Below are positions 38,736 to 44,030 of a stretch of 64,000 nucleotides of DNA, piece by piece. Made by a program: the position numbers and the translations under genes. The first letter of the stretch is position 1. Every line of letters starts with the position of its first letter. The notes under the pieces are model-generated. The model saw only the letters and a list, made by a program, of their open reading frames with translations, did no database searches and was not told the origin of the DNA. Source of the DNA: an uncultured Dehalococcoidia bacterium. Lineage in GTDB: Bacteria; Chloroflexota; Dehalococcoidia; Lucifugimonadales; UBA3495. Location: assembly GCA_964343075.1 (NCBI GenBank), contig CAYFGT010000002.1:89964-153963 (forward strand), given 5' to 3'.

Positions 38736-38758
38736 TCTTGAGTTACTCAAGAGTTTTT
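38736..38758 (+). terminator. Possible weak intrinsic terminator for the + strand genes, overlapping the copCD stop
   Basis: TCTTGAG-TTA-CTCAAGA followed by GTTTTT. Confidence 0.3.
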
Positions 38759-40995
38759 ATGTAATTCACGAGGTGCCATATTTCTTCATCGGCTAGTATT
38801 GATTCGTGAGGATACATACTAGTACCCTCTTTACCGTATTTGATTATAGAAAATAGTTCGTGATCAGTGTGCAATGGCACGTGGACTAATAAATTATTAG
38901 CATCTTTTTCTGGTACTGGTCTGAGTGTTTCGTATAATGGACCGTCTCCCTTACCTGTTAGTCCGTGGCATGCAACACAATTTTCCCTGTAGATGTTTTT
39001 CCCTATTTGCACAGAAATAGAATCTGGAATCATTGGATTGGTCACTTGATTGTTTAATTCAATCGTGCGCGAATAAATAGAAATTCCTAAGCCTATTAAG
39101 ACTCCAGTAATTCCGATCGTCAAATATAGGCGTCCATATTTATTCTGCCAGCCTCCGCTAGCAATACTTAAGATTAAGAGAGAAATGCCTACGACTAAGA
39201 TTGTTAAACCGAACAAGATTCTCCCAACAAAAATATCTATTTCGCCAAATGAAGGATTGCTGCCACCTATGCTTTCTCTAAAAGCAAATCTAGAATCAAG
39301 TCCAGAAGATTTTTGTATAAGGATTTCAAATTGCCAAATTCCCTCGAGGTTAAGCATTAATGGGTCAGTTTCGTATATCCCTTGGTCTGTTAAGTATGCG
39401 TAGAGAGTTGTATTGCCTACGTCTTCATTTAGGTATGTTGATTTTATGATTACATTCGCTGCGTTTTGGATGGGGTTTCCCGTAAGATCTTGAAGATTAA
39501 GGCTTATGGAATTTAATCCCAGTGAACCGGGGATAATAGCCATGTCCAGATTTACTCCTTGCTCATATTGCTCGAATTGAATTTGGTCTGACAGGATGGT
39601 CTGTGAGCTTTTCGCAGGTTCTAAGGACTTTAAAAACCCTACTGAAATGATAATGAATAGGATTAAAATGGATTCGACAGTAATTAGGTATATGGCTATT
39701 CGGGTCATAGATGTCGGATTTTTGAGGAACTTGATAATGACATAGGTATTGATGCCTGCGATGATAATAGCGAGGCTGATTAAGGTTATTTTGGTCAAAA
39801 GAGATATACCGTAGAGAGTAAATAAAGCTTCCGGTTTATTCACTTGCATCCATCCCACATATAGGCCTGTTATGCTCAGCAGTGCGATTGATAAAATCCC
39901 GATGTTTCTGAATTTAAAAAATGATAGTTTAATAAAATCAGACAAATTAGCGGAGGAGAGCTTTTTTCTTAAGCAATAAGAATAAACCGTTAACGTTATA
40001 ATACTACCGGTCCAAATACTACTGAATATTACGTGCAGTATATTTATTATGACCCCTTGGAAATATAGGCTGCTAATAGATGCATTGTGTCCAGATAAAC
40101 TATGAGCTACAAAAAAAACAACACCAGTGGCTATGACCAAGTATTGTAAACCTACGGATTCCTGGTTTTTTTTGTTCGCTTGTTGGTAGCGGTAGATCGC
40201 ATAGCTTACTGGCAAGGTTAATAGGATGAAGAGTTTAGCCCAGGCCAGTTTACCCCAAGTAGTGTCGAAAAATACGTTTATCAAAGAATTTAGAAAGAAA
40301 TTGAAAGTGGAGACTTCATATAATGATGAGACATGAAGGATCAATTGGATAGAAGATCCGGTTAAAGTCACAACAAACCCTATTAATAAGAGCATATTTC
40401 TTGGAACCAAAGTTATTTCCCAAACGCTATTCTTTGTATGATCTGACATATTTAGTGAGATCGGTTTGAGAATCACCAGGTTGAAAAATGCAGTCCCAAA
40501 TAACAATAAAATTCCAATTAAGATTATCGATTTTACGACTGGCTCCATATCGTACAAAAATACTGATTCTTCTGTAGAAAATGAGGAAGTAGATAATGGT
40601 TCGCCTACTGAGTAAAAATAGCTCCCTCGTACTTTGTGCCCATCGATTGTGGATACATTTTTCCATATAACTGTGTAAGTACCATTAGAGCTTTCTGGCA
40701 AGGTTACACTTAGAGATGTTGGATCGCTTGGGTTTAGTTTGCTATCTCTATTATCTACTTGTTTGCCTTGAGTATCATATACTTTGATAGAGCTTAGATT
40801 TTGAGACAATGTTTCTGTGAATTTGAGGATTATTACTTGGGGACTGGTGTCTAATACACTGTTTTGCTTAGGGTCTGCATCAATCAAATTAGCGTGGCTA
40901 TACACTATACTGGATGAATTAAAGGTAATATAAATTGCAAAAAGGCTGCATAGGGTTATGAAGCCTATCCAGAATTTGACCGGAATGAGTTTCAT
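38743..40995 (-). CDS. CopC-CopD-YtkA-like-cytochrome c fusion (copper uptake/handling)
   Basis: VYS|HANLIDADP and STIDGH (CopC); AHSLSGH, HVIFSSIWTG, YGISLLTK (CopD); LNLEGIWQFEI (YtkA-like); CVACH and M.PH (cyt c); ATG 40995 preferred over track start 41091. Confidence 0.88.
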   Translation of the reverse strand: MKLIPVKFWIGFITLCSLFAIYITFNSSSIVYSHANLIDADPKQNSVLDTSPQVIILKFTETLSQNLSSIKVYDTQGKQVDNRDSKLNPSDPTSLSVTLPESSNGTYTVIWKNVSTIDGHKVRGSYFYSVGEPLSTSSFSTEESVFLYDMEPVVKSIILIGILLLFGTAFFNLVILKPISLNMSDHTKNSVWEITLVPRNMLLLIGFVVTLTGSSIQLILHVSSLYEVSTFNFFLNSLINVFFDTTWGKLAWAKLFILLTLPVSYAIYRYQQANKKNQESVGLQYLVIATGVVFFVAHSLSGHNASISSLYFQGVIINILHVIFSSIWTGSIITLTVYSYCLRKKLSSANLSDFIKLSFFKFRNIGILSIALLSITGLYVGWMQVNKPEALFTLYGISLLTKITLISLAIIIAGINTYVIIKFLKNPTSMTRIAIYLITVESILILFIIISVGFLKSLEPAKSSQTILSDQIQFEQYEQGVNLDMAIIPGSLGLNSISLNLQDLTGNPIQNAANVIIKSTYLNEDVGNTTLYAYLTDQGIYETDPLMLNLEGIWQFEILIQKSSGLDSRFAFRESIGGSNPSFGEIDIFVGRILFGLTILVVGISLLILSIASGGWQNKYGRLYLTIGITGVLIGLGISIYSRTIELNNQVTNPMIPDSISVQIGKNIYRENCVACHGLTGKGDGPLYETLRPVPEKDANNLLVHVPLHTDHELFSIIKYGKEGTSMYPHESILADEEIWHLVNYIKTLE

Positions 40996-41159
40996 TTCAC
41001 TCGTTTGCCCTTCACGCCTAGAATTGCAAGAACTATGGATGCGATTAGTCCTATGAATAGGATCCCATAAAAAATTTCGTCCCAATACCAATATTGACCA
41101 TGTAGAAGAAAAATCATATTTACAGCCTTAATAATAGTCCTAGTTAAATTGTATATTAA

Positions 41160-41201
41160 ATTGAGTTATCTGGCTCAGTAGTGCAGGACAGATAACTCAA
41201 T
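41160..41201. promoter_or_regulatory. Perfect 13-bp inverted repeat with 16-nt spacer (RNA stem or operator)
   Basis: ATTGAGTTATCTG (41160-41172) and CAGATAACTCAAT (41189-41201). Confidence 0.6.
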
Positions 41202-41213
41202 CTCATTTAGGGG

Positions 41214-42224
41214 TTATTTTTTTCTAAACTGCAAAGCTAAGCTTAAGCAGCTGATTACGATACCAACGGCACCAATAATAAAGCTAATTAACACCCAGGT
41301 ATTTATCGTGTCAGAACGCATTAATGCTAATTGAGACGTTTTGGTTGCTTCTGTGATTGCACCTGTGATTTCCCTGTCCGAAGTCAATTTTTGAGGGAAT
41401 TGGATGGCAGTAGGTGGGATAATGTCATCGAAATCACCTCCGCCTCCCATGGATACAAAAGTTTCATCTATTTGAGTGCCATGGATGGTTCCATATACCC
41501 TAATTTCATATACTCCTGGACTAGTTGGTATGAATGGCGAAGTATATCTTCCGGGGTTATCAGCATCTTCGCTTAAATTCAGGATTATAGAAGACTGGCT
41601 ACTAACATGTATCAATTCAGTTTTGAGGGTTTCAGATAATCCGGATATTGGCTGTTTTTCAATGTTATTAGAAGTCATTACACCACTGGTTATGGCGTGT
41701 AATTCTTGGCTGTGATTAACCCAGATGATGGTGGTTCCAGGTTGTATATGAATGTTTGGTGGCATCAGAGAGGTTTCATGAATCATTATTTTAACCTCTC
41801 CCGCATCCCCCTCATTGGATACCTGAATGGTGCCAGTGATATCGTGATTCATGTGATCGTGATACGGAATCTCAACATTGTTGATATCTTTTGAAATGGT
41901 GGTGGAAAAATCGTCTCCAGATGACAATACTTCGCTTGCGAAAATCGCTCCATGCGCTTTGACATCCATATCAGTATGACCGTGTGAGTGATGGTCGTGG
42001 TCATGGTGGCCGTCACTATGTGTCTCTTCTTTCGGTGGTTTCCCTGTAATCTTAAGTTCTATGGCATTGATGATGCCTTCGTAAGCTGGCTCAATTTCAA
42101 ATCCTATGACGAAGTTGAAGTCGTTTACGTCTCTACCTCCATGGGCATATATATCATTTGAAGGTATCCAAGAAAATAATATAGCGGCACACGACAATAC
42201 GAATAAAAATTTAATATATTTCAT
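41214..42224 (-). CDS. Exported, C-terminally anchored His-rich protein with inserted circularly permuted cupredoxin-like domain
   Basis: Signal ending IYA|H; HSDGHHDHDHHSHGH tract; cupredoxin C-half precedes N-half; PGRYTSPFIPTSPGVY (YtkA-like); C-terminal TM; AAGGAG RBS. Confidence 0.75.
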   Translation of the reverse strand: MKYIKFLFVLSCAAILFSWIPSNDIYAHGGRDVNDFNFVIGFEIEPAYEGIINAIELKITGKPPKEETHSDGHHDHDHHSHGHTDMDVKAHGAIFASEVLSSGDDFSTTISKDINNVEIPYHDHMNHDITGTIQVSNEGDAGEVKIMIHETSLMPPNIHIQPGTTIIWVNHSQELHAITSGVMTSNNIEKQPISGLSETLKTELIHVSSQSSIILNLSEDADNPGRYTSPFIPTSPGVYEIRVYGTIHGTQIDETFVSMGGGGDFDDIIPPTAIQFPQKLTSDREITGAITEATKTSQLALMRSDTINTWVLISFIIGAVGIVISCLSLALQFRKK

Positions 42225-42226
42225 AA

Positions 42227-42274
42227 TACTCCTTTAAGTTTATGTTTTGTATAAAACTACTGATTAAGGAGCTA
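42227..42274 (-). promoter_or_regulatory. Predicted SD-sequestering mRNA hairpin joining the end of the uORF to the RBS of the next gene
   Basis: mRNA arm UAGCUCCUUAA (42274-42264) pairs with UUAAAGGAGUA (42237-42227), 10 bp with two bulges; inner GUUUU-AUAC-AAAAC stem in the loop. Confidence 0.6.
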
Positions 42275-42704
42275 CTGGAGGCCTTTGTTTTACCAATGCT
42301 GGTACTTCTAAGAGAATATCCCAAGGATTGTAATAGTAATCTAGTAACGGATTATTTATATCGCTTTGATAAGAAAGTTTGATCCATTTCCAAATCAGAG
42401 TTAAACCTATAAACCCTGTGGTGACCCCGCTATTTGGGATAAATTCAATTGAGGGTTGGGAGTCTAAAGGGTCACTTGAGAGTATGTTGATTGAACCCGT
42501 CTGTGGATGGATATGCATTAATTCGTAATTATGTGTGTGATCTGCAGTGTGAGGCAGATGAGGATGATTGGGATATAGTTCAAATGCGTGATGATCGATT
42601 AAAGGAGTTAGCAATTGGCACAAAAGAGTGACGATAAATACGATAGATATCGTTGTTATTTTATTACTAGGATCACTAACTGGTAGATAACCATGTAAGT
42701 ACAT
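42264..42704 (-). CDS. His-rich membrane-targeted upstream ORF ending KQRPPVAP, candidate metal-sensing arrest/leader peptide
   Basis: Hydrophobic ITTISIVFIVTLLCQLLTPLI; 9 His in 31 aa; second hydrophobic stretch; Pro-rich end; start uncertain (42704 or track 42776). Confidence 0.65.
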   Translation of the reverse strand: MYLHGYLPVSDPSNKITTISIVFIVTLLCQLLTPLIDHHAFELYPNHPHLPHTADHTHNYELMHIHPQTGSINILSSDPLDSQPSIEFIPNSGVTTGFIGLTLIWKWIKLSYQSDINNPLLDYYYNPWDILLEVPALVKQRPPVAP

Positions 42705-43151
42705 ATTAGGCGGAACTCTACAAAAATCGGATACTAAGATAATCTCAATTATATAGTATGCTTTTTTAAGATGCATCTAATTTACGAATTACATCAAGTT
42801 AATGGTCATATGCTAGGTTATATTGTTGTAATTACTGATTGATTGACGACTTTCATTTCCTGGAATACGGTATCTTCGTTCGATGCAAAACAAGATTACG
42901 GATTTAGTTATTTTGACGTCTCTAAAACATAAAAATTTGGTATGGAAAACTGATATTGTTTGCAGTATTATGTCTATATGAAGTGATTAATTCTTGTTGA
43001 TTGGAGCTAATAATTTAATAGTTGATATTGCCCAGAGAGTCACGCAAATGGAATGTGATATTTGGCCAAATGAAACAAGGTTAGTATTGACTAACTGGCT
43101 ATGTTAGGGTAGGCTAATTTTTAACCGCACTTTGATCCTAGAGTTTCATGT

Positions 43152-43298: not shown

Positions 43299-44030
43299 AT
43301 GCATATATTGTTGTGCGATGATCAACAATCTCTAGAGAAACTCGACCCTGTGCTTACCATATCTGGTTACTCTGTTCTTAAATCTGAAGATGGAATATCT
43401 GCTTTAAGAGAGTTTTTAATAAGTGAGCCGGAGCTGGTTATAACAAATTTGAAACTCCAGTATATGGATGGCCTAGAATTAACAAGAAGAATTCGAGAAC
43501 GATCAGACGCTCCAATTATAGGTCTGTCTGATACCAACGATGTGGACGCCAAGATTGAAGCATTTAATGCAGGAGTGACAGATTTTCTGCTGAAACCAGT
43601 TTATGAGAAAGAATTATTGGGTAGGGTTGATGCGTGCCTGTTACGGCTTGGTAAGAATGTTAAACCTATGAGTAAATACGAAGATGATCTATTGTTAATG
43701 GATTTTGTGAAACGAGAAGTTAAAATCAAAAATTCTAAAATAGATTTGACTCGCACCGAATACAACTTATTATCTTTACTAGTGAAGAGGAACTCTCAGG
43801 CATTATCTCTTGAGTTTTTATTAGCTAATGTGTGGGGCAGAGAATACGATACGTTTGATCTGGTTAAATGGCATATCAGTAATTTACGGAAGAAAATACG
43901 GAAATTGAGTGGTGATCAGAACCCGATTGTAACCGTGCGCGGATATGGTTACATCTACGATAGTTCAGAGATAAGTACACCTAAAAACTCTTACGATGTG
44001 ATGTCGGGTTATAGGAATAAGGCTAGCTAA
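43299..44030 (+). CDS. Orphan OmpR/PhoB-family response regulator, atypical receiver (Asp to Asn)
   Basis: ILLCDD...LVITNLKL..MDG, DFLLKP; wHTH LTRTEYNLL, LLANVWG, HISNLRKKI, TVRGYGY. Confidence 0.9.
   Translation: MHILLCDDQQSLEKLDPVLTISGYSVLKSEDGISALREFLISEPELVITNLKLQYMDGLELTRRIRERSDAPIIGLSDTNDVDAKIEAFNAGVTDFLLKPVYEKELLGRVDACLLRLGKNVKPMSKYEDDLLLMDFVKREVKIKNSKIDLTRTEYNLLSLLVKRNSQALSLEFLLANVWGREYDTFDLVKWHISNLRKKIRKLSGDQNPIVTVRGYGYIYDSSEISTPKNSYDVMSGYRNKAS

Follow-up and report, generated by a model that had tools for sequence, protein, structure and literature searches.

In Rhodobacter capsulatus, copper-induced stalling of the ribosome at the C-terminal PPP of CutF, encoded in cutFOG, opens a stem-loop that covers cutO's Shine–Dalgarno (SD) sequence (PMC9973294; bioRxiv 10.1101/2025.02.05.636593). 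CutF-like proteins were reported to be rare among Chloroflexota, and CutF-like clusters with His only (sequence similarity network clusters 14 and 17) were described upstream of HupE/UreJ (PMC9973294). CruR of Bordetella pertussis (Bp2923, DUF2946) has a conserved spacing between CXXC and RAPP and acts by Rho-dependent termination over a 162-nt spacer, independently of the signal peptide (PMC9426467); its arrest has been demonstrated (PMC12992588). RAPP/RGPP arrest peptides bearing transmembrane (TM) segments are found upstream of YcnI, PCuAC, and copper resistance genes, for example, SLIV_16130 and SLIV_18480 of S. lividans (PMC12992588). Here, we describe a small protein gene, the leader, at the head of a copper operon in an uncultured marine Dehalococcoidia bacterium of SAR202 type (Chloroflexota). 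It lies on the minus strand of a window of 64,000 nt (contig CAYFGT010000002.1, positions 89,964 to 153,963), and all coordinates below refer to this window. On balance, and with modest confidence, we read the leader as a CutF/CruR-type exported metal-sensing protein whose pause at Pro-Pro unmasks the SD of the next gene.

The leader ends in TAA (42266..42264), 39 nt before the ATG (42224) of the next gene. In the numbering of the longest version of its open reading frame (ORF; 42776..42264, 170 aa), a hydrophobic segment (I40-I60) is directly followed by the His cluster DHHAFELYPNHPHLPHTADHTHNYELMHIHP (D61-P91), which contains nine His in 31 aa. A second hydrophobic stretch (G117-Y136) is situated about 29 aa ahead of RPP, and the protein terminates in KQRPPVAP, with PP three residues from its end. 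A first-pass annotation of this DNA had listed all of these elements and the 39-nt spacer, and each of them was present. It had also called the ORF an upstream ORF, a label that has to be replaced: this is a gene for a 146-aa protein from a sizeable family. The single Cys lies within the TM helix, and no CxxC occurs in the leader protein.

Homologues were compared in an alignment of eight members spanning 33–68% GC (A2), an alignment of 15 members that includes the window protein (A4), a set of the 150 best representatives with a pairwise identity of at most 50%, and a set of 89 non-redundant family loci. The invariant positions of A2, initiator Met aside, were P34, which adjoins the TM helix, eight His (HH, HxH, HxH, HxH), and P142-P143. 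D37, E42, six motif His, and the C-terminal PP were invariant in A4. In the family profile (135 of the 150 representatives), the eight His columns, D37, and the terminal PP had the top information content; the maxima covered GPLLDHHFAERQPGHxH...HxH..E..HxH and the last 13 or so residues, with low values between them and a moderately conserved mid-protein block, giVyLts.DG. The terminal PP was at most eight residues from the end in 145 of the 150 representatives (two before the stop in 97 and four in 36) and at most ten residues from the stop in 87 of the 89 loci (two in 45, four in 26). The conservation of the His motif and of PP upstream of homologues of 41214-42224, two of the tests that the first-pass annotation had proposed, was thus borne out. 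The family consensus tail is approximately EAFVAPPK[KR]PPR[AV] before the stop (EAFVAPPKKPPRA-UAG). All four Pro codons are used for the terminal Pro-Pro, so that selection acts on it at the amino-acid level.

PP is separated from the last HxH by 64–83 aa (5–95%), with a median of 74 and a value of 76 in the window, which is enough for the ribosome tunnel and the translocon. Such a pattern of conservation would be typical of a sensor, a linker, and an arrest motif. The comparative evidence indicates that the leader ORF is a real conserved protein, with its His motif and terminal PP under selection.

The same evidence provides good support for masking of the SD of the next gene by the 3′ end of the leader. 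In the window, the predicted helix has seven contiguous pairs (42272..42266 with 42234..42228), six of them Watson–Crick and one G-U, instead of the 11 nt of complementarity claimed earlier. It is the stem of the minimum free energy (MFE) fold of 42300..42200, and, ranked against the other windows of its locus by pairing with the SD region, the stop window came within the top 2.8%. Across relatives, pairing was tested between a 25-nt stop window and the translation-initiation region (TIR), using cognate and non-cognate partners and same-locus controls; an agnostic search for long-range duplexes (300 nt) was dropped, being too permissive in GC-rich loci. The automatic choice of start codon failed in 11 loci and was uncertain for genes of a second downstream family, family B. 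In the 36 loci of family A, to which the gene behind the window leader belongs, the duplex between stop window and TIR had a mean of −15.5 kcal/mol for cognate versus −12.3 kcal/mol for non-cognate partners (permutation p ~ 5e-5), and the stop window was in the top 5% of same-locus windows in 22. Contiguous helix extension was 3.40 for cognate versus 2.60 ± 0.22 for permuted partners. Anti-SD covariation, the third of the proposed tests, was seen in the pairs outside the CUCC:GGAG core, UAG going with GGAGC and UAA with GGAGU. A helix of unrelated sequence is retained in locus L055 (CCUGAACCUGC:GCAGGUUCAGG, with a UGA stop inside the helix) and likewise in L044 and L021, and the two closest congeners keep the pairing by still other sequences, CUCCUUAA:UUAAGGAG and CUUCU-UCUAG:CUAGAAGGAG.

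When the loci were aligned on the stop, a pyrimidine-rich stretch was seen after it in the relatives. CTCC stood exactly at +3 (TAG-CTCCTT) in 22 of the 89 loci; among 616 background stops, taken from the other long ORFs of these loci, it did so in 4. The window holds the string of its relatives, G-TAG-CTC-CTT-AA, shifted by one base, and here it reads Val-Ala-Pro-stop; its anti-SD arm is homologous to the TAG-CTCCTT element that directly follows the stop in relatives. The leader stop is TAG in 51 of the 89 loci; in high-GC loci, the share is 62% versus roughly 43% for other long ORFs there. In the high-GC loci, CCU encodes the first residue of the terminal PP in 47%, versus 14% for the other Pro codons of the same ORFs, and it yields CCUCC, which may be a second anti-SD. 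Both preferences fit selection at the RNA level, the G of UAG pairing with the C after GGAG; slowing at a rare codon is an alternative source of the CCU bias. We also considered an opposite-strand gene with AAAGGAG for its SD and rejected it, as no consistent start codon follows.

The position of the helix agrees with a switch operated by the ribosome. Measured from the first base of the second Pro codon, the helix had its 5′ edge at a median distance of 5 nt downstream in the family-A loci, inside the footprint of a ribosome paused at Pro-Pro. A ribosome reaches about 15 nt downstream. With this reach, and with Pro166 in the P site, the ribosome would extend to about 42266, where the anti-SD arm has its last base, so the geometry accords with the earlier suggestion that a ribosome paused on Pro-Pro would cover most of this arm. 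As in known SD-unmasking switches, the downstream SD is paired with a segment that would be occupied by a ribosome paused at the putative arrest site. That translation to the end of the leader must open the helix is supported by these data.

We propose the following mechanism. The N-terminal helix would bring the nascent chain to the membrane, and the eight-His motif behind it would exit on the outer face while translation is ongoing. Some 75 residues further on, the ribosome would pause at the proline-rich tail (QRPPVAP before the stop here, PPxKPPRA in most relatives). While standing at the Pro-Pro codons or slightly beyond them, it would hold the anti-SD arm GCUCCUU, which spans the stop, in its mRNA channel, and the pause would give a time window for initiation at the copper genes, which encode a 336-aa His protein and then a CopC-CopD-cytochrome c fusion. 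A metal, most likely Cu(II), may bind the exposed His motif, alter the pulling force on the nascent chain, and so alter the length of the pause. At the pause, the His motif would already be outside the membrane, since 75 residues exceed tunnel plus translocon. Elongation factor P (EF-P) is encoded in the genome, a feature shared with the CutF system that speaks for the proposal. That the pause depends on metal we infer. By analogy with CruR, we lean toward metal releasing the pause and lowering expression, if CopCD serves uptake. The coordinates of the features are collected in Table 1.

Table 1. Features of the leader locus and their positions in the window
Feature	Position	Strand	Remarks
Leader protein gene	42264..42704	−	146 aa plus TAA, counted from M25, the probable start (ORF list, homologues)
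N-terminal TM helix, probable signal anchor, ITTISIVFIVTLLCQLLTPLI	42597..42659	−	AlphaFold2 (AF2) model and hydrophobic block conserved in the family
His motif DHH-x7-HxH-x6-HxH-x5-HxH	42504..42596	−	Adjoins TM helix; putative metal-binding sensor, outer face
Linker, poorly conserved	42282..42503	−	Includes genus-specific hydrophobic stretch 42428..42369
C-terminal tail EVPALVKQRPPVAP	42267..42308	−	Putative arrest or pause motif; Pro-Pro codons at 42281..42276
Anti-SD arm GCUCCUU	42266..42272	−	Ala169-Pro170 codons and first base of TAA; MFE stem
SD AAGGAGU of the 336-aa protein gene	42228..42234	−	Partner of the anti-SD arm
336-aa exported protein (family A), proposed regulated gene	41214..42224	−	Start ATG 42224 behind AAAGGAG
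CopC-CopD-cytochrome c fusion	38743..41091	−	Next same-strand gene; Pfam CopC 4e-19, CopD 2e-11, Cytochrom_C 8e-11
Promoter/operator-like block TGATGTAATTCGTAAATTAGATGCATCTTAAAAAAGCATACTATATAATT	42747..42796	−	Near-invariant in three species

Among the explanations that do without regulated arrest, plain translational coupling is the one to be taken most seriously, although we consider it rather unlikely. In this explanation, the leader is a stable, membrane-anchored, metal-binding His protein, a chaperone or partner of the downstream protein; the helix at the stop only links the synthesis of the two, and the Pro-rich C-terminus has a role in structure or interaction or, at most, causes an unregulated, constitutive slow-down. 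Masking of an SD by the end of the upstream ORF is a classical coupling device and would explain the pairing results without arrest, the leader and a downstream partner gene co-occur in most loci, and the mid-protein block giVyLts.DG hints at some structure; the tail motifs KPPR and QRPP, not established for arrest, and the presence of EF-P also favour it. Several observations tell against the pause-based switch itself. Neither xRPPx nor KPPR nor QPPR is known as a strong arrest motif, these being neither RAPP/RGPP nor PPP, and EF-P is present; the window tail is, moreover, a degenerate form of the family consensus. Stalling at the leader tail is predicted from sequence, and a stable metallochaperone of the membrane could have the His motif as its functional site. 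With 7 bp and about −10 kcal/mol, the window helix is a short and weak one. The hairpin foreseen at 42200-42300 was recovered as the MFE stem; its fold alone was not significant (z = −0.46, 61 of 200 shuffles being as stable), and its support comes from the relatives. The pairing test was not significant in the family-B loci (p = 0.33), where start calls were uncertain, and these uncertain calls probably explain the null result. The metatranscriptome contigs from one marine study left the leader and the junction uncovered and are uninformative for the switch. AF2, run with an alignment of 15 sequences, modelled a helix at residues 12–42 as the sole confident element (predicted local distance difference test, pLDDT, 86–96) and the remainder of the leader as disordered (pLDDT 41–57), with no folded domain predicted; given so shallow an alignment, the disorder is weak evidence. 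What coupling leaves unexplained, however, is the invariant PP found two or four residues before the stop in 133 of the 150 representatives, the ten or so further conserved tail residues beside a linker that is not conserved and yet constrained in length, the anti-SD within one ribosome footprint of the Pro codons, and, within the limit of that alignment, the lack of a predicted folded domain.

A CruR-like attenuation, in which a paused ribosome shields a C-rich, G-poor stretch after the stop from Rho, release of the pause ends transcription, and SD masking is secondary, seems to us improbable. The 15–20 nt after the stop are indeed C/U-rich and G-poor in the high-GC relatives (C 0.34–0.57, G 0.10–0.26), where spacers are often 100–130 nt, and the C-rich stretch recalls the C>G bubble of cruR (PMC9426467). 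The window spacer, by contrast, is only 39 nt and AT-rich, no terminator-like site was found on the minus strand here, and the C-rich stretch is accounted for by the anti-SD itself, while a Rho utilization site needs no complementarity to the SD of its own locus. Chance, that is, a spurious ORF and an accidental CUCCUU near an SD, could appeal to a local fold no better than shuffled sequences; it is refuted by an order-wide family with invariant His and PP and by the clear enrichment and covariation of the anti-SD, and we give it almost no credence.

In a variant of the pause-based switch, the family would form an arrest class of its own: termination, instead of elongation, would be slowed by the tail ...PPxKPPR[AV], and a His-only sensor outside the membrane would set the dwell time at the stop. 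This would be a Cys-free transmembrane metal sensor, widespread in SAR202. The idea draws on the stop being mostly UAG and itself base-paired within the anti-SD helix; UAG is read by release factor 1 (RF1) only. We regard it as speculative and doubtful.

The published definition of CutF-like proteins also asks for a Sec signal peptide at the N-terminus (PMC9973294). The leader has an N-terminal hydrophobic helix for which no obvious cleavage site was seen; it probably acts as a signal anchor and not as a Sec signal peptide that is cleaved. Regarding the start codon, ATG 42776, which would give the 170-aa version, falls in conserved non-coding DNA and was rejected. This ATG lies within a block of about 50 nt that is almost unchanged between the window and its two congeners, against an identity of only about 36% in the leader proteins, and the block is out of frame with the leader ORF in both of the other species (L002 and L003). 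The true start is therefore probably M25 (ATG 42704..42702), which gives the 146 aa. The block contains a −10-like TATAAT (42753..42748), an ATGC-N11-GCAT inverted repeat, and GTAA-N3-GTAA, and its 3′ end is TATATAAT. It is probably a promoter plus operator, and transcriptional control of the operon is therefore likely too. A gene for an OmpR-type regulator is located at 43299-44030, divergent from the leader.

The six-frame search found leader homologues in 23 of 61 relatives, and, within one Dehalococcoidia/SAR202 order, the profile search found them in 238 of 401 genomes, compared with only 8 of 401 genomes in a phylum-wide sample. Among 1.84 billion representative proteins, the profile matched 568 clusters at E ≤ 0.001, mostly 110–180 aa long; the named records with family members were Dehalococcoidia and SAR202 metagenome-assembled genomes. 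No Pfam or NCBIfam model matched the family, and Rfam had no family matching at the junction of the leader and the downstream gene. For DUF2946 (PF11162), the window leader had no match at E ≤ 0.1 and none of the 15 members of A4, the window leader included, matched at E ≤ 1, both in hidden Markov model searches without profile–profile comparison; a six-frame search of the whole genome gave no DUF2946 match. Some assemblies had the leader match in a far longer stop-to-stop frame (334–527 aa), probably due to a GC-rich frame that stays open upstream.

The operon context points to copper, through the CopC-CopD-cytochrome c fusion, to which NCBIfam also assigns CopD and CopC, and through the N-terminal His of the mature 336-aa protein. 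The latter protein has the mature N-terminus A/HGGRDV (the slash marking the cleavage site) and a His tract; its core is beta-rich, and it ends in a TM anchor. Its AF2 model was partial, with weak fold matches to beta-sandwiches of the CopC/FetP/P19/CrdA type, and a fold search with it returned nothing at E ≤ 0.001. Marine metatranscriptome contigs (one study, two runs) matched 40900-41213, 41446-41865, and 41954-42188 at ≥99%, and the copper genes are therefore expressed in situ. Family A, with the mature N-terminus A/HEGREV..VGW.EEPAYEG, was the sole family-A or family-B gene downstream of the leader in 36 of the 89 loci; family B, an exported protein of about 190 aa, followed the leader in 27, and the order leader, B, A occurred in 13.

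Gene order varied further, at L004, L008, L047, and other loci: B-leader-A was seen in L008 and leader-B in L004, and the leader was followed by cupredoxin-like lipoproteins in L020, L039, and L041. The window protein of family A and its homologues in L079-L110 share an invariant mature N-terminus, A/H(E/G)GR, and a C-terminal TM anchor. The homologues range from 212 to 559 aa with a highly variable central insert; the window copy has a beta-rich insert in addition to its His tract. A subgroup of loci with a family-B gene downstream (L025, L034, L035, L038, L065, L085, and L092) has the tail EPPPPRLAL before the stop. Between the stop and about +75, its members share a long-range helix, GCUCUAG:CUAUGAGC, which is invariant and takes in the stop codon, and an inner hairpin, GGACGGC..GCCGUC. 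No covariation was seen in this helix because the sequences are close; the subgroup may have a multi-hairpin version of the switch.

The first-pass annotation had regarded such a switch as undescribed in Chloroflexota. Its novelty holds for the family, which is undescribed and falls outside DUF2946 and RAPP/RGPP, and not for the principle: His-only CutF-like clusters (PMC9973294) and TM-bearing RAPP/RGPP peptides at copper genes (PMC12992588) have been published. What is new is an order-wide SAR202 family, a PPR-x-stop tail, and a stop codon inside the anti-SD helix. If the proposed switch is true, it extends nascent-chain metal sensing, known from CutF and CruR, to Chloroflexota, and leaders of this kind are more diverse than catalogued, since the family is invisible to DUF2946 models and to RAPP/RGPP searches. 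It would also offer a compact test system (39-nt spacer, 7-bp helix, His-only sensor) and would imply post-transcriptional control of copper handling, by CopCD-type genes, in SAR202, a dominant uncultured lineage of the deep ocean.

SecM, MifM, and VemP are arrest peptides that unmask a downstream SD; they monitor the export machinery and are released by force on the nascent chain at the membrane. Our proposal shares their logic, in which a stalled ribosome melts a helix and allows downstream initiation, but they sense export rather than metal, and their arrest sequences are unrelated. With the RAPP/RGPP peptides, the leader has in common that they are small TM or secreted proteins with conserved His/Cys, Pro-Pro near the stop, and copper-handling genes downstream; it differs in having one TM helix rather than four, and RAPP/RGPP is absent from the window (QRPP) and from all 150 representative C-terminal tails, in line with the earlier caveat that QRPP is not canonical.

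Like CutF, the leader is a small exported protein encoded at the head of a copper operon, with a putative metal motif on the periplasmic side, a proline motif at most 15 residues from the C-terminus, and an anti-SD mRNA helix over the next SD that would be opened by a ribosome at the leader end. Under the published rules for CutF-like proteins (<150 aa; PMC9973294), its length falls within the limit at 146 aa from M25 (170 aa from the upstream ATG), and the position of PP and the neighbouring gene agree with these rules (39-nt spacer, exported His protein, CopC-CopD-cytochrome c). Unlike CutF, it has no DUF2946 match and no CxxxC, uses His only, and is probably a signal anchor. Its tail is PPR-x-stop or QRPPVAP, not PPP, and its anti-SD extends into the stop codon itself. 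Neither a multicopper oxidase nor HupE/UreJ is encoded downstream, and the lineage is Dehalococcoidia/SAR202. The DUF2946 hallmarks, CXXC/CxxxC together with RAPP, do not occur in the window leader, which has a single Cys and the tail QRPP. CruR likewise combines CXXC with RAPP, whereas here a His-only motif goes with QRPP or KPPR, the spacer measures 39 nt, and masking of the SD is direct. The two nevertheless share a leader of about 145 aa, a conserved spacing between metal motif and PP, a place at the head of a copper operon (acquisition in CruR), and, as we infer for this locus, the sensing of metal by the nascent chain.

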